Shown piece after piece: positions 26,402 through 56,340 of a DNA stretch of 64,000 bases (positions are counted from its first letter, which is position 1; each line of letters begins with the position of its first letter). The notes below the pieces were generated by a model. It had not been told where the DNA came from and ran no database searches. It saw only the letters and a program-made list of their open reading frames with translations. This stretch comes from Candidatus Algichlamydia australiensis (GTDB lineage Bacteria > Chlamydiota > Chlamydiia > Chlamydiales > JAJFMI01), in NCBI GenBank assembly GCA_033977065.1, contig JAXCHI010000003.1:96001-160000 (forward strand). Direction: 5' to 3'. A program made the translations under genes and the position numbers.

Positions 26402-26431
26402 TTGACAAGGAGATTCAAAAATCAGTACGAT
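26402..26431 (+). promoter_or_regulatory. Putative promoter of fcl-gmd
   Basis: TTGACA-N18-TACGAT, 32 nt before the fcl ATG. Confidence 0.45.
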
Positions 26432-26463
26432 GCCTCATTAAAGCTTAAAGTCGAAGGCTTGAA

Positions 26464-27450
26464 ATGAAAAAGTTTATTCTAGGGTTGATCGTATTCGCAT
26501 TTCCCCTAATTGCAGGTGAAATCCCACGCGACGCAAAGGTTTATGTTGCTGGTCATAGAGGTCTTGTGGGCAGCGCTATTATGCGTCATCTGAAAGAGGA
26601 AGGATTTACAAATATTATAACCCGTACTTCAAGCGAACTCGATTTGCGCGACCAAAAGGCTGCTAATGATTTTTTTGCAAAAGAGAAGCCTGAGTACGTC
26701 TTTCTTGCAGCAGCTAAAGTAGGCGGAATTTTGGGAAATTGTTCTGCGCAAGCCGAATTTCTCTATAACAACTTGATGATTGCGACGAGCACTATCAAAG
26801 CAGCTCATAATCATGGTGTAAAGCGCTTTATTAACCTCGGCTCCTCTTGCATCTATCCCCGCATGTGCCCGCAACCAATTAAAGAAGAGTACTTACTAAC
26901 AGGCGCTTTGGAAGAGACTAACTACGGCTATGCCATTGCAAAAATTGCAGCGATCAAACTTTGCAAAGCACTAAATGTGGAAAATAAAACGCGTTTTATC
27001 TCAATTATGCCGTGTAACTTATATGGTCCAAACGACAACTATGACCCCAAGACAAGCCATCTCTTTCCTGCAATGATTCGTAAAATTGTCGAGGCAAAAG
27101 AGAATGGGGATCCTACTTTTGTTATGTGGGGAACAGGAAGTCCAAAGCGCGAATTTATGCACTCTGATGATGTAGCACGCGCTTCTCTCTTTTTAATGGA
27201 AAATTACGATGGCGATGAGATTGTAAACATTGGCTGGGGAAAAGATATCTCTGTGCTCGACTTCACCAATATGGTCAAAGAAGCTGTTGGGTATGAGGGC
27301 GAAATTGTTCTTGATCCCACAAAGCCTGATGGAACTCCACGAAAAATCATGGATGTCTCTCGCTTAAAATCTTTAGGTTTTGAGCCGAAAATTTCTTTGA
27401 GAGAGGGCATTGAGAGAACTGTACAAGATTTTCTTAAGGAGCATCGATGA
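26464..27450 (+). CDS. fcl: GDP-L-fucose synthase with an N-terminal signal-peptide-like extension
   Basis: [39 protein letters not shown]. Confidence 0.95.
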
Positions 27451-28535
27451 GAAAGGTTTGGCTTTTCTTTCTTCTCCCTCTTGCTCTTTTTGCACAGAAA
27501 AAGGCGATCATCTTCGGTATTACAGGCCAAGATGGCGCCTATCTAGCAGAATTTCTATTAGAAAAGGGCTACGAAGTGCACGGTGTAAAGCGCCGTGCCT
27601 CTTTTCGTAATACACAGCGCGTTGACCATATTTACGAAGAGCCGCAGGCAAAATCAAGGCACTTCTATCTCCACTATGGGGATGTTACAGATGCCCTTGG
27701 TATTGCAAAACTCGTTCATCAAATTGAACCCGATGAGATCTACAACCTAGCAGCCCAAAGCCATGTGCGCCTCTCATTTGAGATCCCTGACTACACAAAT
27801 GATGTCAATGCAGGCGGTCCTTTGCGCATACTAGAAGCGATCCACGCTCTGGGAATGGAAGATAAAGTCCGTTTTTATCAAGCTTCTACAAGCGAGATGT
27901 TTGGAGCCGCGTCTCCTCCTCAAAACGAGCAGACGCTTTTTTATCCAAGATCCCCTTATGCTGTTAGCAAACTTGCTGGGCACTGGCACACAATCAATTA
28001 CCGTGAAGCTTACGGTATCTTTGCTTGCAGTGGGATTCTGTTTAATCACGAATCACCAAGACGTGGCGAGACCTTTCTCTCTCACAAAGTGACAAAAGCT
28101 GCTGCACGCATTAGTAAAGGCCTGCAAGAAAAACTCTATATCGGCAATCTCAATGCGCGCCGCGACTGGGGATATGCACTGGATTATGTCGAAGCCATGT
28201 GGTTGATGCTCCAGCAAAATAATCCTGACGACTATGTGATTGCAACAGGAGAATCGCACTCTGTTCGCGAATTTTGTGAACTCGCTTTTTCATTTGTAGG
28301 TATTGATCTTGCCTGGAAAGGAGAAGGTCTTGATGAAGTGGGTTACGACCGCAAAACAGGACGAATTATTATCGAGATTGATGAGCGCTACTTCAGACCA
28401 ACAGAGGTTGATTTCTTACGCGGTGACCCTTCTAAAGCAATCAAAAAACTCGGTTGGAATCCACAAAAAACTTCGTTTAAAGAGCTTGTGGAGTTAATGG
28501 TGCGACATAATTTAGAAGAGATTGTAGACGTATAA
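27447..28535 (+). CDS. gmd: GDP-mannose 4,6-dehydratase with an N-terminal signal-peptide-like extension
   Basis: [48 protein letters not shown]. Confidence 0.96.
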
Positions 28536-28561
28536 ATTATTTTTTTGATAGTTTGGGGCCG

Positions 28562-29515
28562 ATGTTAAAAAAAATATTATATATTGGTCTATTTGCTCTT
28601 TTTACTACAGGGTGCGCGAAAAAGGAGGGGTTTGCCGTACGTAAAATCACCTCTTCCCATGCGCCAAATGAAAAGTGGGAAACCGAAGCCATTAGCGGTG
28701 ATCAGCTCGAAGAGCTGAAAACTCTTTTTGACGAGCCTTTTTACTACTTGGCAAAAGGGTGCCAATCCTACGCTTTTGTCTCAGCAGATGGGAAAACAGT
28801 TCTCAAGTTTTTTCGCCAGCGTCGCTTGGGGCGCCACACATGGCAAAACGCGCTTCCTCTTCCTCACTCCTTAATGAAAGGGTATGCGAAAAAATTTGAG
28901 GAGGGTCTTGCGCAGAGGGAAAAAGAGTTTTCTGGTTATAAAGAGGCTTTTGAAAACTTGCGAGATGAGACGGGACTTGTCTACCTCCATTTAAATCCTA
29001 CTCACGAGCTCTTAAACAAAAAAGTAACCCTTTATTATAAAAATAAGCGCGTTGACGTAATCGATATCGACAAGTTTGAATTTGTTTTACAAAAGCGCGC
29101 TATACTTGGCTTTGATCATTTAGAAGATCTCATGAAGAGAGGAGAACAGAGGCGCGCTCTTAACTCTATCTGTTCGTTTGTCAACCTGATCATCAACCGC
29201 TGCCAAAAAGGTTATGCTGACTATGACCAACAATTCTCTAAAAATTTTGGTTTTATAAATGACCAAGCAATTGAAATTGATATTGGCTACCTAGAAAAAG
29301 ACCCCTCCATGAAAAGTGCGGATAAATGCCAGACTGAAGTAGAATCGGTAACCGAGTGGGTTTTAAATTGGTTTTATGAAAATCATCCCGAAACCCTACC
29401 AAGAGTAAAAGAGATCATCAAAAGAACCGTTAATGAAAAATGCGCTTGTCAAGGGAGCGATCTCTCTACACAAACTCTGCCAACCCAAGAGGAATCCTCT
29501 TCACAATCCGACTAG
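28562..29515 (+). CDS. Lipoprotein with a protein-kinase-like fold
   Basis: Lipobox TTGC; LAKGCQSYAF..VLKFF; D-x5-N (DQQFSKN) and IDIG motifs. Confidence 0.6.
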   Translation: MLKKILYIGLFALFTTGCAKKEGFAVRKITSSHAPNEKWETEAISGDQLEELKTLFDEPFYYLAKGCQSYAFVSADGKTVLKFFRQRRLGRHTWQNALPLPHSLMKGYAKKFEEGLAQREKEFSGYKEAFENLRDETGLVYLHLNPTHELLNKKVTLYYKNKRVDVIDIDKFEFVLQKRAILGFDHLEDLMKRGEQRRALNSICSFVNLIINRCQKGYADYDQQFSKNFGFINDQAIEIDIGYLEKDPSMKSADKCQTEVESVTEWVLNWFYENHPETLPRVKEIIKRTVNEKCACQGSDLSTQTLPTQEESSSQSD

Positions 29516-37222: not shown

Positions 37223-38404
37223 TTAGAATCCAAAGCGGAACTTCAAAGTAAACCCTTGGATATTTAGATTTCCGTGGTTACCTTCTTCGTAGATTCCGTA
37301 GAATTGGTTCATATTCCACCATGCTTGCTCTTCCCATCCAGCTTGGATTTGGAAGTGGTAAGCATCGTCACATGACCACATTTCCCAACGTAGTCCTAAA
37401 CCTAGCTCTAGCACAGGAATGATTGTGTGGAATTCATTTTCTGTGTAGAAGTTTGTGTACGCTGCTGTGTTATCAGCTATGTTATCGTCACTTGTGTCAC
37501 GACGGCATGTTTGGAACTGACTCCATAGAGCAGATAGTGCTACGTTACCGTAGATTGCCCAACTTTTTGTGAAGTACCATGCAGTATCGAATCCTGTACG
37601 GATACCAAAACCCCAATAGTCCATCTCTTGCTTGATGCGAGTCAACTCTTCAACACCACCCTGTCCATCTGTAGTAGTATAAGAGTTCTCATATCTTTGT
37701 GACTGCCAGGTTCCTTTGAAACCGAAGTGTGGTCTCATTGAAAGATACTGACTTACAAAGAAGTTACGTCCAAGATTCAAATCAATTGTTTGGAAGTGTA
37801 GGTCCCAAGTAGTTGAAGCAGCTGTCAACACGCTGTCCGGAGCAAATAAGTTACCTGGTCCTACTGCACCAGCCTGGCGTGTAAACCAGTTTGGTCCAAG
37901 TCTTGAGGTATCAAAATCGGTAAAGCTTGTTGAATCTTTTGCATCATCTGTGAACAACCATGTGTACTCAGCTTTTACATCCCATGCATCGTGGTCAAGC
38001 ATCAAAGCTAGGTCCACTTTGAAACCAGGATCAAAACCAAAGTCAGGATGCTTTACGCTTCCTTTTGGAATTGTTGTGTTAGCTGTGCGATCGTTTACGC
38101 TTGCCCAGTTAGTCGCAGCATAAGCAAGACCCTCTTGACGAGCTGTCCAGTAAATAAAGTCCGCTGAGATAGCTAGGTCAACACCACAAGCTACTCTTGG
38201 TCCTGCTGGTGGCAGGAATGCCATGTTTAAGCAAAGTCCAGGCATGCCATAAGCTTCTTCGTCGCAAGGAGCGCAAGTTGGCGGTGGTGGACATTTTGGC
38301 GGACAACTCGGTGTACCACAGCCGGAAGAACCGCTGTTGTAATCACCGTTTAGGCCTGCACCTGTTAAAAGGAGCAAACCCGCTAAAGGTAACATTTTTT
38401 TCAT
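37223..38404 (-). CDS. MOMP-like beta-barrel with a Cys/Pro-rich N-terminus
   Basis: Signal peptide; DFIYWTARQEGL; PGFKV; GWEEQAWW; ends FRFGF. Confidence 0.88.
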   Translation of the reverse strand: MKKMLPLAGLLLLTGAGLNGDYNSGSSGCGTPSCPPKCPPPPTCAPCDEEAYGMPGLCLNMAFLPPAGPRVACGVDLAISADFIYWTARQEGLAYAATNWASVNDRTANTTIPKGSVKHPDFGFDPGFKVDLALMLDHDAWDVKAEYTWLFTDDAKDSTSFTDFDTSRLGPNWFTRQAGAVGPGNLFAPDSVLTAASTTWDLHFQTIDLNLGRNFFVSQYLSMRPHFGFKGTWQSQRYENSYTTTDGQGGVEELTRIKQEMDYWGFGIRTGFDTAWYFTKSWAIYGNVALSALWSQFQTCRRDTSDDNIADNTAAYTNFYTENEFHTIIPVLELGLGLRWEMWSCDDAYHFQIQAGWEEQAWWNMNQFYGIYEEGNHGNLNIQGFTLKFRFGF

Positions 38405-38513
38405 TCTGTACTCCAACCCTATATGGTTTATTTTAATGTAATCTCCATGATTAACCTAAACAATTGATGCTGTCAACACCTTTTTTGTTTTGGCTATCAT
38501 TTTCGGAGACATC

Positions 38514-38791
38514 GAATAATGCATTCACCAACATTCTGGCCGAAAAATTCTTGAGAGCCCTATTTTTAATCTCTACCAATTTCAAAATATGTTGGTCGAG
38601 ATTTCCGACTAGCGCTTTTTGGACTTTTCAGCTCACCCTGTTGACAAAACAGTTGTTCAATGGCTCCTTCGCAAGCATTCTTGCAAATCTTGCGTAAGTA
38701 TTCACCAGGAGTCCTGGAATTATTTCCAGGTAGTCTACTTCCTGGAGAACACTTACGCGCAGAAAAAAGCAAAAAACCTTCTCCTGCCATT
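38514..38791. repeat. Two adjacent imperfect palindromic elements (38514-38658, 38659-38791)
   Basis: Centres ATCTC.ACCAA..TTGGT.GAGAT and CCTGGAA-ttat-TTCCAGG; arms GCGTAAGT/ACTTACGC and AATGGC/GCCATT. Confidence 0.65.
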
Positions 38792-38815
38792 CAGGACCAT
38801 ACTAGCATAGTTGAA

Positions 38816-39898
38816 TTAAAAGTCTATACGAATTTTTGCTGTGAGACCATTCAGAGATAGATTTCCATGAGATGTTGGTTCATAAACGCGATAGAATTCG
38901 TTCATGTCCCACCAGTATTGCAGCTCCCATCCTAACTGAAATTGGTAGTGAAAGCGTTTTGTACATGAGAATCCTTGTGCACGAAGACCGAGCCCAATTT
39001 CTAATGCCGGAATCACAGTGTGAAACTCATTTTCCGTATAAAGTGACGTAGTTTCAGGCAGCGAGGGTACTGCAATATTTGCAAAGCGATCTCTTCGCAC
39101 TACCTCAAATTGTCCCCAAAGTGCTGAGAGTGCAAAGTTCCCATATAGGCTGACTGGCTTTGAAAAAAACCAATTTGTATTCAACCCCGCTCGCGGACCA
39201 AATCCCCAAAACTCTAAATCTTGCGTTATGCGCCACTGCCTCTGATCAGCAACGCCAAGAAGGCGACGGTAGCGTATCGAAAGATCTTGATCTTGCCAGG
39301 TTCCCTTAAACCCAAAAAATGGCCTTGTTGTGAGCCAGCTGCTCACAAAAAAGTTGCGGCCTAACTCGAAGTCGAGTGTTTGGTAGTGCAGACACCATCT
39401 GCCCCGCGCTTCGTTAAGGAGAGGATCGTCAGGTGTGAGTGGAAAGAGTCCTTGAGGAAACCAAGTGGCAGCAATCGCTGCATCTTCAATGGAGTTTGCC
39501 GAGATAGAGTTTTTCTGATCTCCTGTATAAAACCATGTATATTGAAAGTAAACATCCCAAAAGTCGTGATCTAGGTTAACTCCGAAGCCTGCTTTGAACC
39601 CAGGATCAAAGTCAAAACCGGGATGCACAACTTTTCCCTTTTTAACAGACTGTGTGGGATTTGCTCTCCATCCACTCGCTGCAAAGCCTAATCCATCTTG
39701 ATCCGCACGCCAGTAGATGAAATCTCCTGTAAAATAGATGTCTACTGGACAGCGTACGCGGGGACCCGCAGGAGCTGTTGATCTCTCATAGCGATGCTCG
39801 TGATACTCATCAATTTTACCGGGTGCAGGCATAGGAGGATGATCTTGATAAGCCATCATAAGTATCGGAAAAAAAGTAATGAGGCGCGAAAGTTTCAT
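38816..39898 (-). CDS. MOMP-like beta-barrel
   Basis: GDFIYWRADQDGL; PGFKAG; ELGRNFF; ends IRIDF. Confidence 0.88.
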   Translation of the reverse strand: MKLSRLITFFPILMMAYQDHPPMPAPGKIDEYHEHRYERSTAPAGPRVRCPVDIYFTGDFIYWRADQDGLGFAASGWRANPTQSVKKGKVVHPGFDFDPGFKAGFGVNLDHDFWDVYFQYTWFYTGDQKNSISANSIEDAAIAATWFPQGLFPLTPDDPLLNEARGRWCLHYQTLDFELGRNFFVSSWLTTRPFFGFKGTWQDQDLSIRYRRLLGVADQRQWRITQDLEFWGFGPRAGLNTNWFFSKPVSLYGNFALSALWGQFEVVRRDRFANIAVPSLPETTSLYTENEFHTVIPALEIGLGLRAQGFSCTKRFHYQFQLGWELQYWWDMNEFYRVYEPTSHGNLSLNGLTAKIRIDF

Positions 39899-39901
39899 CT
39901 A

Positions 39902-40990
39902 TTAAAAGTCTAACCTCAGCTGAAAAGTCAACCCCTGCATGGTAAGGTCTCCCTGGTTTCCCTGTTCATAAACACGATAAAATTGGTTCATCTCCCACCA
40001 TACTTGGTGTTCCCATCCTAATTGCATCATGTAGTTATAGAGATTTTCATTAAAGCGTTTCTCCCAGCGTAGCCCTAAAAAGAGCTCAAGCACTGGGACG
40101 AGAGTGTGGAATGAGTTGCATGTGCGAAATGAAGAGAGCTCAGGTGCACTCCCATCTGTAGGAGCAAATCGATCGTTACGCTCTACATCAAATTCACTCC
40201 ATAATCCTGAAACAGCTGCTTTTCCAAGCAATCTAAACCAGCGATTGAGATGAAACGCTGCATCAAAACCCGTGCGTATTCCAAATCCCCAGTAGTCTAG
40301 TTGCTGTGTCATTCTGCGGAAAGTATTGTTTGCAACGTTTGGCAAGGCTTCATATGCCACTAAAAGGTGTTGCTTTTGCCAACTCCCTTTAAATCCGAAA
40401 TGGGGCCGTAGATCAAGTTTTCTACTTGCTCTTGATGTACGGGCAAACTCTAAGTCTATGGCGTTAAAATGTAAATCCCAACGGCTACGTGCTGATAAAA
40501 GGAGGGGGAAATCGGGCTCTAAAAGAGATCCTGGTGCTCCTTCTCTCATAAACCAGGTAGCTCCATCGCTTGTTGTCAAAGAGTTTGGGCTCTCCGTACT
40601 CGATCTCTTATCACCTGTATGTAGCCACGTATATTTCGACTCAATTTCCCAAGCATCATGTGGAATGCGTATTCCAAGCCCGACTTTAAAACCGGGTTCA
40701 AATGCAAAATCAGGGTGCTTAACACTGCCTCTGTTTGGGTCTTCTCCCAAAGCGTTACGCCACTTAGAAGCTGTATACCCCAAGCCATCAACGCGTGCTG
40801 TCCAATAAATGAAATCACCTGAAAGGTTGAAGGTCCAGCACTCCTCCTTCAAAGGGCTTCCACAAAAAAGAAGTGAAGGTCCTCCTGTTTCACAGATAGG
40901 ATCGGGAGGTGAAGGAGGTTCACAATGGTTGTATGCATTTTCTGCATGCAAAAAAGCAGAAAAGAGTAAAAACAGTAAACCTTTTTTCAT
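39902..40990 (-). CDS. MOMP-like beta-barrel
   Basis: Signal peptide; GDFIYWTARVDGL; PHFGFKG; ends LRLDF. Confidence 0.88.
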   Translation of the reverse strand: MKKGLLFLLFSAFLHAENAYNHCEPPSPPDPICETGGPSLLFCGSPLKEECWTFNLSGDFIYWTARVDGLGYTASKWRNALGEDPNRGSVKHPDFAFEPGFKVGLGIRIPHDAWEIESKYTWLHTGDKRSSTESPNSLTTSDGATWFMREGAPGSLLEPDFPLLLSARSRWDLHFNAIDLEFARTSRASRKLDLRPHFGFKGSWQKQHLLVAYEALPNVANNTFRRMTQQLDYWGFGIRTGFDAAFHLNRWFRLLGKAAVSGLWSEFDVERNDRFAPTDGSAPELSSFRTCNSFHTLVPVLELFLGLRWEKRFNENLYNYMMQLGWEHQVWWEMNQFYRVYEQGNQGDLTMQGLTFQLRLDF

Positions 40991-40998
40991 ATTATCCC

Positions 40999-42093
40999 TC
41001 AAAAGTCAAACCTCAGCCGCAATGTAAATCCCTGCATTACAAGTGATCCATGATCTGTCTCCTCTAACACGCGATAAAGTTTGTTCATCTGGAACCAGCG
41101 CTGCTCTTCCCAAAGCATATCTATGGAGAGATGGTACAGACTGTTAAAAAACCAGACCTCACCACGTAATCCTGTTGCAAACTCCAAAACAGGTTGGATC
41201 GTATGAGTGCCGTTTTCCGTTCTAAAACGTACAAAATCGACTCCATTTGTTCCAATTCTGTCAGACCTTTGGACATCAAAGTAGCTCCATAAGCCTGAAA
41301 AGGCAACGTCTCCAATAAATGACCAATACTTATTAAAATGCCACGCACCATCAAACCCTGTACGCATTCCCAATCCGTAAGAGTCCTGTGTAATATGCAT
41401 GCGCTCTTCTTGCATCACTCCCAAATTTGTAACAGAGTCGTAATGGACAACATAATCTTGCTGCTGCCAAGTACCTTTCAATCCAAAATGGGGACGAAAA
41501 GAGAGATACTTACTAAAAAAAGAGTTACGTCCCAGTTCCAACTCAACTACTTGAAACTGCAACTTCCATTCAGCATTTGCTTTATAGGGAATAAAGTCCG
41601 AGTTGATACTCCCACCAATGTACCACGTGCGCTGCAGGTCAGTAGTCGCGCTATCGCGTGTGACAAATCTCTTTGTTCCTTTCGGTTGAATCCATGTGAC
41701 TTGTCCAAAAAGGTCCCAATCATCATGCTCAAGTGAAACTCCTAACCCAAACTTAAAGCCCGAATAGTATCGAAAATCAGGTTCGAAAACCTCTCCACGT
41801 TTTTCTGGTTCTATCCCGAAGTTTTGCACACCGCTTGTTACAAACTCAAGACCTGATTCACGCCCTGTCCAATAGAGGTAGGAGCCGGTCATAAAATACC
41901 CAGCTCCGCCTTTTACGCGTGGACCTGCGGAGGGAGTTGCGTAATATTCTAGCATTGCATCGCACGGTCTATGTAAAGCGACAGAACTTTCCCATGGGCA
42001 GCCACAAGCTGAGCCCGTTTGGCTCAAGCTTTGTTCGGAGTCTTTTTGTGCAAAAAGACAGACAGGAATTAGCAGAAAAAGTTTTCGAAACAT
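40999..42093 (-). CDS. MOMP-like beta-barrel
   Basis: Signal peptide MFRKLFLLIPVCLFA; YLYWTGRESGL; ends LRFDF. Confidence 0.88.
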   Translation of the reverse strand: MFRKLFLLIPVCLFAQKDSEQSLSQTGSACGCPWESSVALHRPCDAMLEYYATPSAGPRVKGGAGYFMTGSYLYWTGRESGLEFVTSGVQNFGIEPEKRGEVFEPDFRYYSGFKFGLGVSLEHDDWDLFGQVTWIQPKGTKRFVTRDSATTDLQRTWYIGGSINSDFIPYKANAEWKLQFQVVELELGRNSFFSKYLSFRPHFGLKGTWQQQDYVVHYDSVTNLGVMQEERMHITQDSYGLGMRTGFDGAWHFNKYWSFIGDVAFSGLWSYFDVQRSDRIGTNGVDFVRFRTENGTHTIQPVLEFATGLRGEVWFFNSLYHLSIDMLWEEQRWFQMNKLYRVLEETDHGSLVMQGFTLRLRFDF

Positions 42094-42168
42094 ACGGCAG
42101 TAGACCTTACTGTAGATGAGCAAAAACAATTTTTGCAAGACCAACATTTAATATAGGGAAAGAGAAAT

Positions 42169-50411: not shown

Positions 50412-51146
50412 CTAGTATTTAATGCCAATGATTGAAGCGTTTCTTCCTGTTTTTTTTTCATCTCGGCGAAACGAAAAACAGAGATCTGGGTTGTCGTAAG
50501 AACAGATGCGCGAAAAGTGCAGGTGCTTTTCTTGCAAACCTAACTCTAACAGCTGCCACTTTGCAACGGCCCATAAATCAAAGTAGTTGGGTTTCACTTG
50601 AAATTGCCAAAAACTCTCCGGAAGTTCGCTTCGGTAATTTACAAATTCTCCTCGATTTTGCCCCAAACTTGGAGAGATGGAAACGCGCAAATCTGTAGGA
50701 GAACTTCCAAAAACCTCTTTCATCCTACGCACTATTTTCGCATAAATGTTTTGACACTGCCCTCGCCAACCTGCATGAGCCACTCCCACCGCTCTTCTCA
50801 CTGGATCATAGAAAAGTGCAACCTGACAATCAGCCCATGTCATCATCAGAGCAATCCCAGGAATATCTGTAATCAAACCATCGCAGTTTCCTACAAACTC
50901 AGTCGAATCTTCCTTGACGTGTGCAATGGTTGCACCATGAACAACTCCTCCCGTGATCCATCTTGAAAATCCTAAAGCTTCCGCCGCACGCCTGCGATTT
51001 TTCAAAACATTTTCCTTATCATCACCCACGTTTAAAGAGAAGTTTCCCTCGCTACGAAAAAAGTGTCCATGAGGCACTTCCATCTCCCTAGAGTGCGTGA
51101 ATTTTTTATTTATCACTTTGAAACCTATTTCTAATTGCGGTACCAT
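50412..51146 (-). CDS. pgeF: YfiH/PgeF family protein (start uncertain)
   Basis: DGLITD; ADC; HAGWRG; FSFRRD..TGR. Confidence 0.88.
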   Translation of the reverse strand: MVPQLEIGFKVINKKFTHSREMEVPHGHFFRSEGNFSLNVGDDKENVLKNRRRAAEALGFSRWITGGVVHGATIAHVKEDSTEFVGNCDGLITDIPGIALMMTWADCQVALFYDPVRRAVGVAHAGWRGQCQNIYAKIVRRMKEVFGSSPTDLRVSISPSLGQNRGEFVNYRSELPESFWQFQVKPNYFDLWAVAKWQLLELGLQEKHLHFSRICSYDNPDLCFSFRRDEKKTGRNASIIGIKY

Positions 51147-51172
51147 TGATGCATCTTAAGCAAAAAACTAAC

Positions 51173-53173
51173 ATGGGACTATCAACTTATTCAAGCATTG
51201 CCACTCCGTTTCTCTCCATTAGAATGTACGAAAGAGAGAGAACAATCCGCGCCGGAGGAAACCGCTACCTCCCGCTCCTTATGCAAATTTTGCAACTATC
51301 TACGGTAATCAATTTTGTAAACGAATCCGATGTCTTAACCCCACTTTTTGGCAGAGCCGTCAAACTAAATTCTGGCTATTTCATAATGGCAGAGATTGCA
51401 TTCGGGGTTTTTCTCCATCTATCCCCCATTAATAAACAGCTTAAAACACCTACAATTGTACCGGAAAAAACGATCAAAGGGGTAGATTTAGAAAATAAAA
51501 AATTTGTTGTTGTTATTCCCTCTCATAAAAAAAATCCTACTCGTGTTTCCAATGCTCTCTCAAGAGCCATTACACCTCTTGCGAATCAATTCGATGAGAG
51601 CACACCTGTATCTCGGACTGCGCTTCGGATTTTTAACAACATCTCAAATTTTAGCATGATCGTTTTATTCGCTACATCTTTCGGTCTTATTGCAAAGGGA
51701 GAACGAAGAAAAGGCGCTACAATTCTCGGAATTTTTGCCGCAAAAGGCGCCATAGAAACCGCCAACTCATTAGATAGAATTGCAGAGGTGTTTCGAGATC
51801 ATAAGTTTACATCTACTGGGGATCGAATAAAAAGCTTTTCAGATGCAATTGCTATTCCCCTTTCTCGTATTCGTTACCACTTCAACTCAATCTCAAAGAG
51901 AATCAGCGTCGTAAGAGCATATACAACACTCTATACAGGAGACGAATTAGAGAAGTTTTTTTCTGTTTTAGATTTAGCAAATGATCACTTTGGAAATCTA
52001 GTCTATCGCATTTACAAGTGGAGCCAAGGTGAGAAAAAAGATGCATACGTCAAGCAAAAACTCTACTCACCTGTAGAAAACCTTAACCACTGCGAAGTCG
52101 ATGAAACACACATTCAACAGGCAATCATTCTCCCCCCAGAGCCTGATCTTAATCTTGAAAAATCTCTTATTGAGCTCTACGATAAGACAACTTTTTCAGA
52201 TCAAATCTGCTTGGATAACCAGGAAGATAAAAAATTAATGAAAAAAATCATGGAGGGTGTGGTTAAAAACACTCCTGAATCCATACGAGCCTATGCTAAA
52301 GATGGAATCCGTTTGTTTATTCGAGGAGTGATTTGGCAGAAACCTATCGCTGGAAAAATGCGTTCTCAAATGGACTATGACAGAGTCCGCATTATGACAA
52401 AATGCCTTGTAGAAAAATTCCAAAACTCTAAAGATCCAAAACAAAAACCCTACATAGATCGAGCACTCTTCACGTTAGGCCTTCTAGGCCACTACTGTTC
52501 AGCGGGGTATTTTCGAGTTCTTGAACCTCTCTATTCAAGTTTTGTTGAGTCTAAATCGACAGATAGAAAAACAAAAATTCTCAACCTTTTAAGAAACACA
52601 AGACACAATATCCTTGATGGTAATTTTCTACAAAAAACCAATCCCTTACAAGCCTCGGTAGAAGACCCTAACGATATTGATTACCGAAATCAAACCCTTC
52701 TTGAAGACTACTGGCTTGCAAACGAACCTCCCACCTTTGGAGCACAAGCTGAATATGGAAATAACCTTAGCTGGATAAGCGTTGGAGTGCGCTATTTACA
52801 GTTCAAACCGTTGGAGAATCGAAGGAAACTCTACACTCCCCAAACTATCTGTGAAGCAATTAATGAAGATTTAGCTAATGAGCGGATAGTAAAAAAAGAA
52901 GAAACCGAAGAGATTCAAAGAAGTCAAGTGCCCATGGACGACTACCTGGAGTGGTTTGTTATGTGGCTCATGATAAGAAAAAACTATAAAAATAGAGATG
53001 ATGCCGTCAAGTTTTTTAACGATAACATCAAAATTGAAGAAGAGATCGCGCCCAACAATGAGGGAGAAGATTGGCAATATCGATACACAATTAAAGAGAA
53101 TTATCTTCGATTGATGCTTGTCGAGTTGGGAATCTTAAAAGTCCCAGAAGACTCTCCTTATCTGAAAAAATAA
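51173..53173 (+). CDS. Hypothetical membrane-associated protein, paralog 1
   Basis: Collinear paralog of 54391-56340; N-terminal hydrophobic segments; GHYC..G.FRV motif. Confidence 0.8.
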   Translation: MGLSTYSSIATPFLSIRMYERERTIRAGGNRYLPLLMQILQLSTVINFVNESDVLTPLFGRAVKLNSGYFIMAEIAFGVFLHLSPINKQLKTPTIVPEKTIKGVDLENKKFVVVIPSHKKNPTRVSNALSRAITPLANQFDESTPVSRTALRIFNNISNFSMIVLFATSFGLIAKGERRKGATILGIFAAKGAIETANSLDRIAEVFRDHKFTSTGDRIKSFSDAIAIPLSRIRYHFNSISKRISVVRAYTTLYTGDELEKFFSVLDLANDHFGNLVYRIYKWSQGEKKDAYVKQKLYSPVENLNHCEVDETHIQQAIILPPEPDLNLEKSLIELYDKTTFSDQICLDNQEDKKLMKKIMEGVVKNTPESIRAYAKDGIRLFIRGVIWQKPIAGKMRSQMDYDRVRIMTKCLVEKFQNSKDPKQKPYIDRALFTLGLLGHYCSAGYFRVLEPLYSSFVESKSTDRKTKILNLLRNTRHNILDGNFLQKTNPLQASVEDPNDIDYRNQTLLEDYWLANEPPTFGAQAEYGNNLSWISVGVRYLQFKPLENRRKLYTPQTICEAINEDLANERIVKKEETEEIQRSQVPMDDYLEWFVMWLMIRKNYKNRDDAVKFFNDNIKIEEEIAPNNEGEDWQYRYTIKENYLRLMLVELGILKVPEDSPYLKK

Positions 53174-54296: not shown

Positions 54297-54390
54297 CTAC
54301 GCAAATTAAAATAAAAAACAAACAGGAAAAGCTGAATAATTGCCCTCCTTAAAACTTTTTCGAAAGGAGCAGTTATTCAGAGTTTATGAT

Positions 54391-56340
54391 ATGAATCTCT
54401 CAGCCTTTTCAAGCATTGCTGAACCCCTAACATTTGTAAATGATTGTCAGGAAGAAAACACTTACCGTACAGGCCGATCCTACTATCTTCCTCTGATTTT
54501 TCAAGGCATAATTGCTTACAACACGATCACCTATGTTAACAGCACGGACTCACTTAAACTTCTTTTTGGTAGAACTGTAGAAATCCAATTCCGCTATTTT
54601 CTTATTACGCAAATTGCTATTGCTACTCTTTTAAATCTACCCAGTTGGAATAACTTCCTCAAAGCTCCTCGTATCGGACCGAAGGAAATTTATCATAATG
54701 GGGTTCCTACGATTTATACAAATGTCACCGAGAAAAAAGATCCTGGACCAACCGCTAAAAAGATTTCAAAGGTGATTTCACCTCTATCTAGTCAAATGGA
54801 GGGAAGCACACGACTTTCCAAAACTGTTTTCTTTATCCACGATAACATTCCAAGGGCTGCAAGAGTTGCAATGATTGCGAGCTCTGTAGGTCTGATTGCA
54901 AACGGATATCGTGTGAAAGGGGCTTCAGCACTGAGTGTGTTTGCACTAGAAGAAATAATTCATTTTTTGTACTCACTCGAGGAAATTGCGCAAAAATGCG
55001 ATCAGTACGGCTTGAATGCATTTGCAGAGAGAACAAGGGGATTTTCAAAAAAAATTGCTCCCCTACTTTCACAGTTTCGATTTAGGTTTTACAACCTTGC
55101 AAATAACATTGAGACATTAAACAACTATTATAAGGTTTATTCTGGAACAGGAGAAGGAAGACTTATCTCTTTGATTATGTTACTTGATAGGCATTTAGGA
55201 AATACAATTTACCAAGTTTACAAGTACGCTCAAGGCGAGCAAGAAGAGACTAGAATAGAGCAAAAATTGCATTCTCCTATTGAGGATATTGACGAATATC
55301 ACTGTGAGATAAATGAAGCACATATTCGTCCAATCTACTTGCCAAATGAGCCCAATTTAGATCTAAAAGACTCTCTAAACTCTCTTTATAAAAGAAGCAC
55401 GTACTCAGATGAGTTCTGCAAAATAAAAGCAAATGAAGATGATGTTTTAAAAGTAAAAATCCGAAAAGGAGAAGTAGAAAACTCTCCTAAAGCGATCAGA
55501 GAATACCTAGGAAAAGGCTTTGAAAAATTTGTAAATGCTGCCGTTAACCATAAACTTCAAGCAGGTGAACTCCGCACGCAAAAAGATTATGACAACCTAC
55601 GTATAATGATAAAATGCTGTGTAGAAAAGTGGTTAGAAAGCTCAAAAGAAAATGTTCCCGTTGAAATTCAAGATGCCTTATTCAATATTGGTCTTGTCGG
55701 TCACTACTGTGTAGATGGTCTCTTTCGTGTTGTAGAGAGTTACTACGCTTCGTTCGTAGATTCCAAAGCAATAGGAATTGATGCGAAGCTCTCGCATCTT
55801 CTGCGCACAATGCGACGCAACGTTCTTGATGGAGTGCTGACGGAGAAAACTAAGCCTGCAGCACGAGCTCTGCTCAACCCAGATGATATTCACTTAAGAA
55901 ACGAAATAATCTCTGAATTTTACTGGCTCGCAGGAGAACCTCTGACTTTTGGAGCTCAAGCATTCAGTGGAAATAAGATTAGCTGGTTCAGTGCCATCTT
56001 CTATCACACCTTTTACCACCCACTGGAAAAAAGACGGCAGCGCTACACTCCAAAAACCATCTGTGAAGCGATCAATGAAGATCTTCATAACGGTCAAAAC
56101 GCTACCATTCCATTTGATGAATACACGAAATGGTTTGGAAGATGGCTGGCTGAAAAACATAAAATCTCACAAACAGAAGGAGAGAACCGCTTCTATTCTG
56201 AATTTGTAGTTGAAAAAGAACTTGGCGATCCAGAAAACCCTGACTATCGCTACTCCATCAAAGAGAGTGCTCTCCTAATGATGCTTGTCGAGTTGGGAAT
56301 CTTAAAAGTCCCAGAAGACTCTCCTTATCTGAAAAAATAA
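54391..56340 (+). CDS. Hypothetical membrane-associated protein, paralog 2
   Basis: Start aligned with paralog 1 (MNLSAFSSIA vs MGLSTYSSIA); identical C-terminus. Confidence 0.8.
   Translation: MNLSAFSSIAEPLTFVNDCQEENTYRTGRSYYLPLIFQGIIAYNTITYVNSTDSLKLLFGRTVEIQFRYFLITQIAIATLLNLPSWNNFLKAPRIGPKEIYHNGVPTIYTNVTEKKDPGPTAKKISKVISPLSSQMEGSTRLSKTVFFIHDNIPRAARVAMIASSVGLIANGYRVKGASALSVFALEEIIHFLYSLEEIAQKCDQYGLNAFAERTRGFSKKIAPLLSQFRFRFYNLANNIETLNNYYKVYSGTGEGRLISLIMLLDRHLGNTIYQVYKYAQGEQEETRIEQKLHSPIEDIDEYHCEINEAHIRPIYLPNEPNLDLKDSLNSLYKRSTYSDEFCKIKANEDDVLKVKIRKGEVENSPKAIREYLGKGFEKFVNAAVNHKLQAGELRTQKDYDNLRIMIKCCVEKWLESSKENVPVEIQDALFNIGLVGHYCVDGLFRVVESYYASFVDSKAIGIDAKLSHLLRTMRRNVLDGVLTEKTKPAARALLNPDDIHLRNEIISEFYWLAGEPLTFGAQAFSGNKISWFSAIFYHTFYHPLEKRRQRYTPKTICEAINEDLHNGQNATIPFDEYTKWFGRWLAEKHKISQTEGENRFYSEFVVEKELGDPENPDYRYSIKESALLMMLVELGILKVPEDSPYLKK

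Follow-up and report, generated by a model that had tools for sequence, protein, structure and literature searches.

Bacterial nucleotide-sugar, 3'-phosphoadenosine-5'-phosphosulfate (PAPS), and NADPH chemistry is placed in the cytoplasm, and lipid-linked donors are used beyond it. In the colanic acid operon of Escherichia coli (gmd-fcl-gmm-wcaI-manC-manB), GDP-mannose 4,6-dehydratase (Gmd) is cytoplasmic, as is GDP-L-fucose synthase (Fcl, also WcaG). Here we analyzed an fcl-gmd pair in a 64,000-nucleotide stretch of contig JAXCHI010000003.1 (the window) from Candidatus Algichlamydia australiensis, which encodes the same two short-chain dehydrogenase/reductase (SDR) enzymes with the same motifs and coupled genes. 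In contrast to the E. coli pathway, both proteins begin with Sec-type leaders (16 to 17 residues), the gene order is fcl-gmd, and Phe replaces Thr before the first glycine of the Gmd nucleotide-binding motif. The canonical cytoplasmic pathway is marked by leaderless starts and by ManC in the genome; neither was found in the source genome (for ManC, with the queries given below). Throughout, G000 denotes the genome that holds the window, an environmental Chlamydiales genome of 1.80 Mb and 93.4% completeness, and other G numbers denote genomes of relatives.

Donor-dependent transferases that work beyond a membrane are familiar from the eukaryotic Golgi, where GT6, GT11, GT32, GT34, GT92, STELLO, CAP59, LicD, and PAPS-dependent sulfotransferases act on imported donors and where UDP-xylose synthase and similar SDR interconverters work in the lumen. 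Eukaryotic GDP-fucose and PAPS arise in the cytosol and are then imported, whereas in the chlamydial case the donor-making enzymes themselves would be exported. The chlorovirus PBCV-1 encodes a GMD (A118R) and a GMER (A295L), a parasite's pair that works on host GDP-mannose and glycosylates the parasite's own surface (accessible text of PMC9614988); these enzymes are made in the host cell without export, whereas a bacterium must secrete its enzymes across its own membrane. In Chlamydia trachomatis, the nucleotide-sugar transferases GlgA and GlgB act in the inclusion lumen on host UDP-glucose, delivered by the recruited host transporter SLC35D2 (accessible text of PMC6717882). They differ in using type III secretion without a Sec leader, in making a storage polymer, and in having no exported donor-making enzymes or sulfotransferases beside them. 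The chlamydial Sec/type II secretome (CPAF, HtrA, CT311, CT795, and Ptr) provides a route to the periplasm, inclusion lumen, and host cytosol, for which G000 has GspD-, GspE-, and GspF-like genes; in the same accessible text, its listed substrates are proteases or proteins without an assigned function, and enzymes that depend on NAD(P)H or nucleotide sugars are not among them (PMC6717882). For Chromulinavorax, signal sequences are reported on 44% of proteins, with no mention of glycosylation in the accessible part of the paper (PMC6561590). In the literature searched, mostly non-subscription main texts, we found no description of Gmd, Fcl, or PAPS synthase with signal peptides and no account of exported glycosylation enzymes as a set in Chlamydiae or Dependentiae. 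Each part is a known enzyme, and functional precedents exist (chlorovirus GMD/GMER and secreted GlgA); for a bacterium that exports donor-making enzymes together with a full transferase set by Sec, we found no described case.

We favor, at a probability of roughly 55%, a reading in which an exported set, located in the periplasm or the vacuole, uses host donors to add glycans to the bacterium's envelope or to proteins that it secretes. Gmd and Fcl would leave the cytoplasm unfolded via Sec, signal peptidase I would cleave their leaders, and the mature enzymes would bind NADP(H) and convert host-derived GDP-mannose to GDP-L-fucose outside the bacterial cytoplasm. The product would feed exported nucleotide-sugar glycosyltransferases, sulfotransferases, and methyltransferases, which would decorate the bacterium's own envelope or its secreted proteins with fucosylated, sulfated glycans. 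This would take place in the periplasm or, through a type II secretion system (T2SS), in the vacuole lumen. No lipid carriers or flippases would be used in such a "host-fuelled bacterial Golgi," run on host GDP-mannose, NADPH, and PAPS.

Sec-type leaders on Fcl and Gmd

An earlier examination, hereafter the sequence-only reading, had proposed that both proteins carry Sec-type signal peptides ahead of their Rossmann strands with no internal ATG before the catalytic domain, and the open reading frames (ORFs) were as described. Both leaders are short and stand directly before the Rossmann strand. Between the gmd start codon and the nucleotide-binding motif there is no ATG, GTG, or TTG, and the sole internal candidate start of fcl is a TTG at codon 8, within the hydrophobic stretch. 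The leaders show a basic n-region, a hydrophobic core of about 10 to 12 residues, a small residue at position -1, and no lipobox, and many leaders are separated from strand beta-1 by only 0 to 3 residues. In the AlphaFold model of Gmd (mean predicted local distance difference test score [pLDDT], 90), the leader is a low-confidence helix outside the fold, with strand beta-1 from residue 19.

Leaders were scored with our own classifier rather than SignalP, a position matrix built from 29 G000 proteins that are clearly exported, with hand-placed cut sites (leave-one-out median, 12.9; minimum, 5.4). Of 1453 ORFs, 98% scored below Fcl (15.5) and Gmd (16.5), and 19 cytosolic or leaderless window proteins scored 8.0 or less. 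The leader pattern equals that of outer membrane proteins (OMPs) and of apparent TolB-, BamA-, and Skp-like proteins of G000. The OMP whose leader had been likened to that of Gmd was found at window positions 41002-42093 on the minus strand, and the window's RmlB, RmlC, and RmlD start without a leader, as had also been stated. An annotation or start-site artifact was ruled out by the lack of an internal gmd start, by Shine-Dalgarno sites at the leader ATGs, and by conservation in 30 genomes. Judged by these features, the leaders are very probably functional Sec/signal peptidase I signals, with the proteins exported and cleaved.

The same leaders could instead be uncleaved anchors or weak signals that keep the enzymes at the inner membrane, on its cytoplasmic side, using imported GDP-mannose and NADPH. 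Every cofactor is normally found in the cytoplasm, there are basic residues behind the hydrophobic stretch as well (the native KK of strand beta-1), the window has leaderless GT9 and GT2 genes close to gmd, and an internal Met retained in some relatives could yield a cytoplasmic isoform. However, the short cores would not span a membrane, and the n-region is basic; 34 of 36 leader-bearing chlamydial Gmd proteins have Ala, Ser, or Gly at residue -1 (partly by construction); the pattern is that of the G000 OMPs and TolB-, BamA-, and Skp-like proteins; and G000 Gmd lacks an internal start. We consider this arrangement improbable. The membrane-tethered cytoplasmic metabolon that the sequence-only reading had offered as an alternative to export is likewise a poor fit to the basic n-region, the short cores, the small residue at -1, and the close spacing to beta-1. 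We looked for a gain of cysteines as a sign of an oxidizing compartment and saw none (mean, 2.8 versus 2.5, with 3.3 in leaderless chlamydial Gmd).

Family scores and intact motifs point to the dehydratase and the synthase. Gmd passes TIGR01472 (551 bits; cutoff, 415). The best family for Fcl by far is NF047922, yet its 434 bits fall below the cutoff of 500, which was reached in 1 of 14 chlamydial genomes with an Fcl match. Aligned with solved enzymes, Gmd has GxxGxDG (G24-G30), T148/E150, and Y171/K175, and Fcl keeps GxxGxxG, S127-S128-C129, Y156/K160, and H199; we take the GxxGxDG, Thr/Glu, and YxxxK elements of Gmd and the Ser-Ser-Cys, YxxxK, and His elements of Fcl to have their usual catalytic roles. 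The closest structures are 7kf3, 1db3, 7ll6, and 1bsv, and identity to the E. coli proteins is 57% for Gmd and 46% for Fcl (over 319 of 321 residues). The nearest named Gmd homolog, from a Chlamydiales bacterium, is 84% identical and keeps the leader. The Phe of G000 Gmd (Phe23) stands before the first glycine in 41 of 48 leader-bearing Gmd proteins versus 0 of 193 leaderless ones; as a universal leader marker it was rejected, since leader-bearing Gmd of Dependentiae also has Thr, Ile, Leu, or Val there. Both G000 proteins differ from the consensus at several conserved positions. A look-up of sequence clusters put a name on only 1 of 10 leader-bearing Gmds.

Leaders across Chlamydiales and Dependentiae

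The survey of Gmd and Fcl N termini that the sequence-only reading had proposed showed that leaders recur in 30 chlamydial genomes and that the two enzymes are concordant. We scored 300 genomes of the order, 112 of them with Gmd; all Gmd loci but one weak second match were fetched, one further genome was added, and 122 full-length Gmd genes were read, leaving out three cut genes and one copy with stops. Leaders were sorted by script and then corrected by eye. Thirty-six of the 122 genes, from 30 genomes and 14 family codes, bear a leader, and 86 are leaderless. The leader sequences are unrelated to each other, and the architecture is common to all. A matrix score of at least 5 was reached by 33 of the 36, versus 0 of 20 leaderless genes with any upstream start. 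Fcl occurs in 14 of the 30 leader-Gmd genomes, with leaders on all 15 genes (13 by script and 2 by eye), 7 of which are unlinked to gmd; among Fcl-like genes beside a leaderless or cut gmd, leaders were found on 0 of 18. In three Fcl proteins (G087, G035, and G108), the ancestral start Met lies exactly behind the predicted cut.

PAPS synthase follows the same pattern. Full-length ATP sulfurylase-adenosine 5'-phosphosulfate (APS) kinase fusions carry leaders in 8 of 8 leader-Gmd genomes (5 by script and 3 by eye) versus 1 of 5 others. These leader-bearing bifunctional enzymes of 558 to 590 residues occur in nine Chlamydiales genomes (loci L326, L328, and L331-L337), in G301 about 300 bases from a leader-bearing fcl, and a crude screen found hydrophobic leaders on about 115 of the 120 nearest homologs.

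Outside the order, a leader was present at 1 of 77 readable loci of named genomes, in an unclassified bacterium. Of the database matches to Gmd, 13 of 119 have a leader, the named ones from Chlamydiales, Simkaniaceae, and Babeliales. In Dependentiae, the phylum of the Babeliales genome G309, Gmd occurs in 77 of 151 genomes; at the 30 best-scoring loci, which are not a random sample, 17 of 33 Gmd genes have leaders by eye. At those loci, ManC also bears a leader by eye in 5 of 14 copies (L366, L374, L385, L386, and L389), so some Dependentiae may export every step from mannose-1-phosphate onward. In a FastTree phylogeny of Gmd, 53 of 64 leader-bearing sequences, Chlamydiales and Dependentiae mixed, form one group (support, 94), which suggests exchange of Gmd between the two. 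G000 Gmd falls with P0003 and P0004 outside this group with weak support (80), and the tree forces at least two leader changes; a single origin of all leaders is thus not shown. The 15 leader-bearing Fcl proteins share a group (support, 86) with a single leaderless Fcl from Babeliales.

Two oddities were seen among the relatives. In G142, G119, and G192 (L262, L261, and L271), an in-frame duplicate of Gmd's own N-terminal Rossmann segment precedes Gmd, and G002 has a second, tandem fcl (L294:2543-3541) with a leader and with the active-site region deleted and altered.

Leader-bearing transferases and donor supply

A leader-bearing cluster of glycosyltransferases and sulfotransferases occupies 22 kb of G000 (C3:406-428 kb), where 20 of 24 ORFs were flagged for leaders. 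The cluster lies between topA- and uvrD-like genes, an arrangement shared by G003 and, for its uvrD side, by G002. A Pfam scan of 79 G000 proteins, chosen from 146 candidates in 20 fetched regions, gave 11 sulfotransferases (10 over the cutoff), 6 GT2 (5 over the cutoff), 2 GT32, 1 GT6, 1 LicD, and 1 methyltransferase, and later searches added three sulfotransferase-like genes. From their sequences, four GT2 proteins of the cluster look membrane anchored with a stem. Two unnamed families have GT-B-like models, viral nearest clusters, and virus and phage relatives. The first has 462 relatives, with 39 of the best 150 leader-flagged; many relatives of one unnamed transferase begin at the mature N terminus; and among the fusion partners of one unnamed GT-B family, GT11 appears in 1 of 25, too few to assign a function. 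PHROGs named 0 of 14 unnamed proteins, and a single-sequence fold of one cluster protein reached a pLDDT of only 33. Unnamed GT-B-fold families common to giant viruses and phages lie at L144:11114-12172, L144:9051-10013, and L145:1377-2423.

In relatives, gmd often lies amid leader-bearing GT11, NodZ-like, GT4, GT25, GT34, STELLO, CAP59-like, and FkbM genes. We compared the 30 leader-Gmd genomes with 50 of the 81 leaderless ones, hand-picked across families, in which kin are not independent. GT11 was found in 17/30 versus 12/50, GT6 in 10/30 versus 2/50, and sulfotransferases in 16/30 versus 14/50. Hydrophobic N termini occur in both genome groups, at 24 of 30 GT11 loci and, among the matches listed, on 11 of 11 GT6 and 22 of 25 sulfotransferases. 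Exported transferases thus appear to be order-wide, with exported Gmd as an accessory.

Parachlamydia GT6 has been assayed and adds GalNAc to the fucosylated H antigen; a signal peptide is not mentioned in the accessible part of that paper (PMC3516806). The GT6 of G000 has a D-A-D motif; no GT11 was found in G000, and the blood-group-like combination of GT11 and GT6 was thus not seen there. Both families occur in 7 of the other 29 leader-Gmd genomes, with leader-bearing members adjacent or no more than about 2 kb apart in G202, G257, and G161 (L350, L397, and L398); such a pair would make an A/B blood-group-like trisaccharide. Leader-bearing NAD-dependent epimerase/dehydratases also lie in exported-glycosyltransferase clusters of G307 (L394:12967-13968), G114 (L396:13192-14214), and G161 (L398:4457-5497). 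Leader-bearing proteins of G000 further include an S-adenosylmethionine (SAM) decarboxylase (L156:10821-11228), a GNAT acetyltransferase (L147:10330-11007), and, presumably, a superoxide-dismutase-like protein (G000:C4:410067-410699; labeled from its motif).

Genes for making the donors inside the cell were largely missing. ManC was not found in G000 by four queries, nor APS kinase, ATP sulfurylase of either type, or MetK by family searches, all with controls that matched. GalU was not found either, and no GalE lay over the cutoff; Ugd- and WcaJ-like genes are present at G000:C4:383-386 kb, which suggests that UDP-glucose is imported. A genome search found no leaderless Gmd or Fcl paralog, so that both genome checks named in the sequence-only reading, for manC and for leaderless paralogs, came out negative. 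Leaderless Rml, KdsB, WaaA-like, and heptosyltransferase-like genes are present. ManC-like genes were found in 7/30 leader-Gmd versus 40/50 leaderless genomes, in the former mostly in separate lipopolysaccharide (LPS)-type clusters (that of G161 lies 5 kb from gmd). Strict exclusion between exported Gmd and ManC was thereby ruled out. G000 encodes four nucleotide transporters and a T2SS core (GspD-, GspE-, and GspF-like genes at C3:291-296 kb); GspG and GspO were not found with E. coli queries. We know of no sequence signal for T2SS release beyond the outer membrane. NAD+ and SAM are taken up from the host by Chlamydiae (accessible text of PMC3104491), and such molecules must presumably reach the periplasm.

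Several observations weigh against an exported, host-fed route. Family searches in G000 found no GT11, GT10, NodZ, or O-FucT fucosyltransferase (control genomes were silent, though GT11 matched in relatives), which leaves the GDP-fucose consumer without a recognized candidate, and no Fcl match was obtained for 16 of the 30 leader-Gmd genomes. Genomes with leaderless Gmd likewise include some that carry GT11 and sulfotransferases with leaders. G000 is 93.4% complete. A ManC match is missing from 10 of 50 leaderless-Gmd genomes too, and a leaderless ManC-like gene is present in 7 of 30 leader-Gmd genomes, so that ManC loss is a trend among kin rather than a rule. Fcl requires stoichiometric NADPH. 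The masses of GDP-mannose and NADPH exceed 520 Da. The C. trachomatis inclusion passes only molecules of <520 Da (accessible text of PMC3104491), which counts against their passive entry into a vacuole of this kind. For a periplasmic or vacuolar setting, access is the weak point, and host transporters, as with UDP-glucose in glycogen synthesis (PMC6717882), or a leakier vacuole would be needed.

The lack of a known fucosyltransferase family in G000 would also suit a pair that is a relic of an exported pathway after loss of its fucosyltransferase or that makes another product for an unrecognized enzyme. The departures of both proteins from consensus and the missing Gmd match in the same-genus genome G001 (76% complete) point the same way. 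Against this, both frames are intact with catalytic motifs present, the leader is kept in the 84%-identical relative, and several unnamed glycosyltransferase families, one of them fused to GT11 in G232, are available as consumers; we regard a relic or other product as very improbable.

Export via Sec and T2SS (or vesicles) might also end in the host cytosol. There, the enzymes would be metabolic effectors that divert host GDP-mannose, provide GDP-fucose for the glycosylation of host proteins or of the outer face of the vacuole, or coat progeny after vacuole rupture like giant viruses. GDP-mannose, NADPH, ATP, and PAPS are abundant in the host cytosol, and the exported enzymes depend on NADPH, ATP, and GTP (Fcl, PAPS synthase, and ManC in 5/14 Dependentiae loci), so that a cytosol-like pool is needed. 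A host enzyme could complete the route where Gmd occurs without Fcl, two unnamed transferases have viral closest relatives, and starts at the mature N terminus among the relatives of one of them fit as well. C. trachomatis Sec/type II substrates reach this compartment (accessible text of PMC6717882), and Babeliales, in which leader-bearing enzymes are present, are without most LPS genes (accessible text of PMC4776705). However, the four GT2 proteins with an apparent anchor and stem suit an envelope, a multistep set of at least 20 enzymes would become diluted, the cluster position is conserved as for a housekeeping envelope locus, and export would be redundant if the host makes its own GDP-fucose. 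We therefore judge a host-cytosol destination, the strongest of the competing readings, unlikely and prefer the periplasm or vacuole.

Read directly from the sequences are the leaders and their conservation, the concordance, the intact motifs, the co-exported set, the missing donor genes, the T2SS core, and the nucleotide transporters. The exported, host-fed nucleotide-sugar pathway that the sequence-only reading had suggested gains support from the missing ManC and paralog, the conserved leaders, and the concordance of Gmd, Fcl, and PAPS synthase. On this evidence, it is likely that the enzymes act outside the cytoplasm on host donors.

The locus, its surroundings, and implications

Features of the locus are collected in Table 1. 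The reported coupling of the gmd start to the fcl stop was seen as an ATGA overlap. TTGACA-type sites number 3 in the count versus 4.5 expected from shuffles, so the promoter alone is not significant. No manC, gmm, flippase, or polymerase gene lies near the pair.

Table 1. Features of the fcl-gmd locus (window positions)
Feature	Position	Strand	Remark
Sigma-70-like promoter TTGACA-18-TACGAT, upstream of fcl	26402..26431	+	10/12 consensus matches
Shine-Dalgarno-like GAAGG, 6 nt 5' of fcl ATG	26453..26457	+	Sequence
fcl, GDP-L-fucose synthase (epimerase/reductase), 328 aa	26464..27450	+	Single copy in genome
Fcl Sec-type leader (residues 1-17; cleavage predicted behind Ala17)	26464..26514	+	Matrix score 15.5
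Shine-Dalgarno AAGGAG, 5 nt 5' of gmd ATG	27436..27441	+	Sequence
gmd, GDP-mannose 4,6-dehydratase, 362 aa	27447..28535	+	Single copy in genome
Gmd Sec-type leader (residues 1-16; cleavage predicted behind Ala16)	27447..27494	+	Matrix score 16.5

Directly 3' of gmd is a lipoprotein-type gene (28553-29515) with no Pfam or NCBIfam family; leader-bearing look-alikes, possibly kinase-like by impression only, lie at G000:C2:386-393 kb. Elsewhere in the window are genes that we take to be type III secretion genes, four paralogous OMP-like genes in tandem (37223-42147) with a fifth at 458-1615, and two paralogous proteins of about 670 residues with near-identical C termini (51146-53173 and 54340-56340). 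The type III secretion genes and the nearest named Gmd homolog both place G000 in Chlamydiales. Contig C1 of G000 (87 kb; 37.6% GC versus about 42%) holds many leader-bearing genes, presumably of F-type conjugation.

More broadly, it is reasonably probable that many environmental Chlamydiales and Dependentiae moved activated-donor branches and transferases outside via Sec signals, as a host-fuelled Golgi that makes fucosylated, sulfated, and sometimes blood-group-like glycans without lipid carriers. The branches would cover GDP-fucose, PAPS, other nucleoside diphosphate-sugar interconversions, and in some Dependentiae GDP-mannose synthesis, with Gmd exchanged between unrelated phyla and with families common to giant viruses and phages. 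If this is true, the rule of cytoplasmic donor chemistry would be broken, and the space around these bacteria would be metabolically continuous with the host cytosol. It would account for variable surface glycans in reduced intracellular bacteria without the usual donor pathways, and the bacteria would be expected to have coats with fucose and sulfate, on which recognition by protist hosts could depend. Genome-based metabolic reconstructions of both phyla would then misplace many enzymes, and the set would be a source of uncharacterized soluble transferases of eukaryote-like families.

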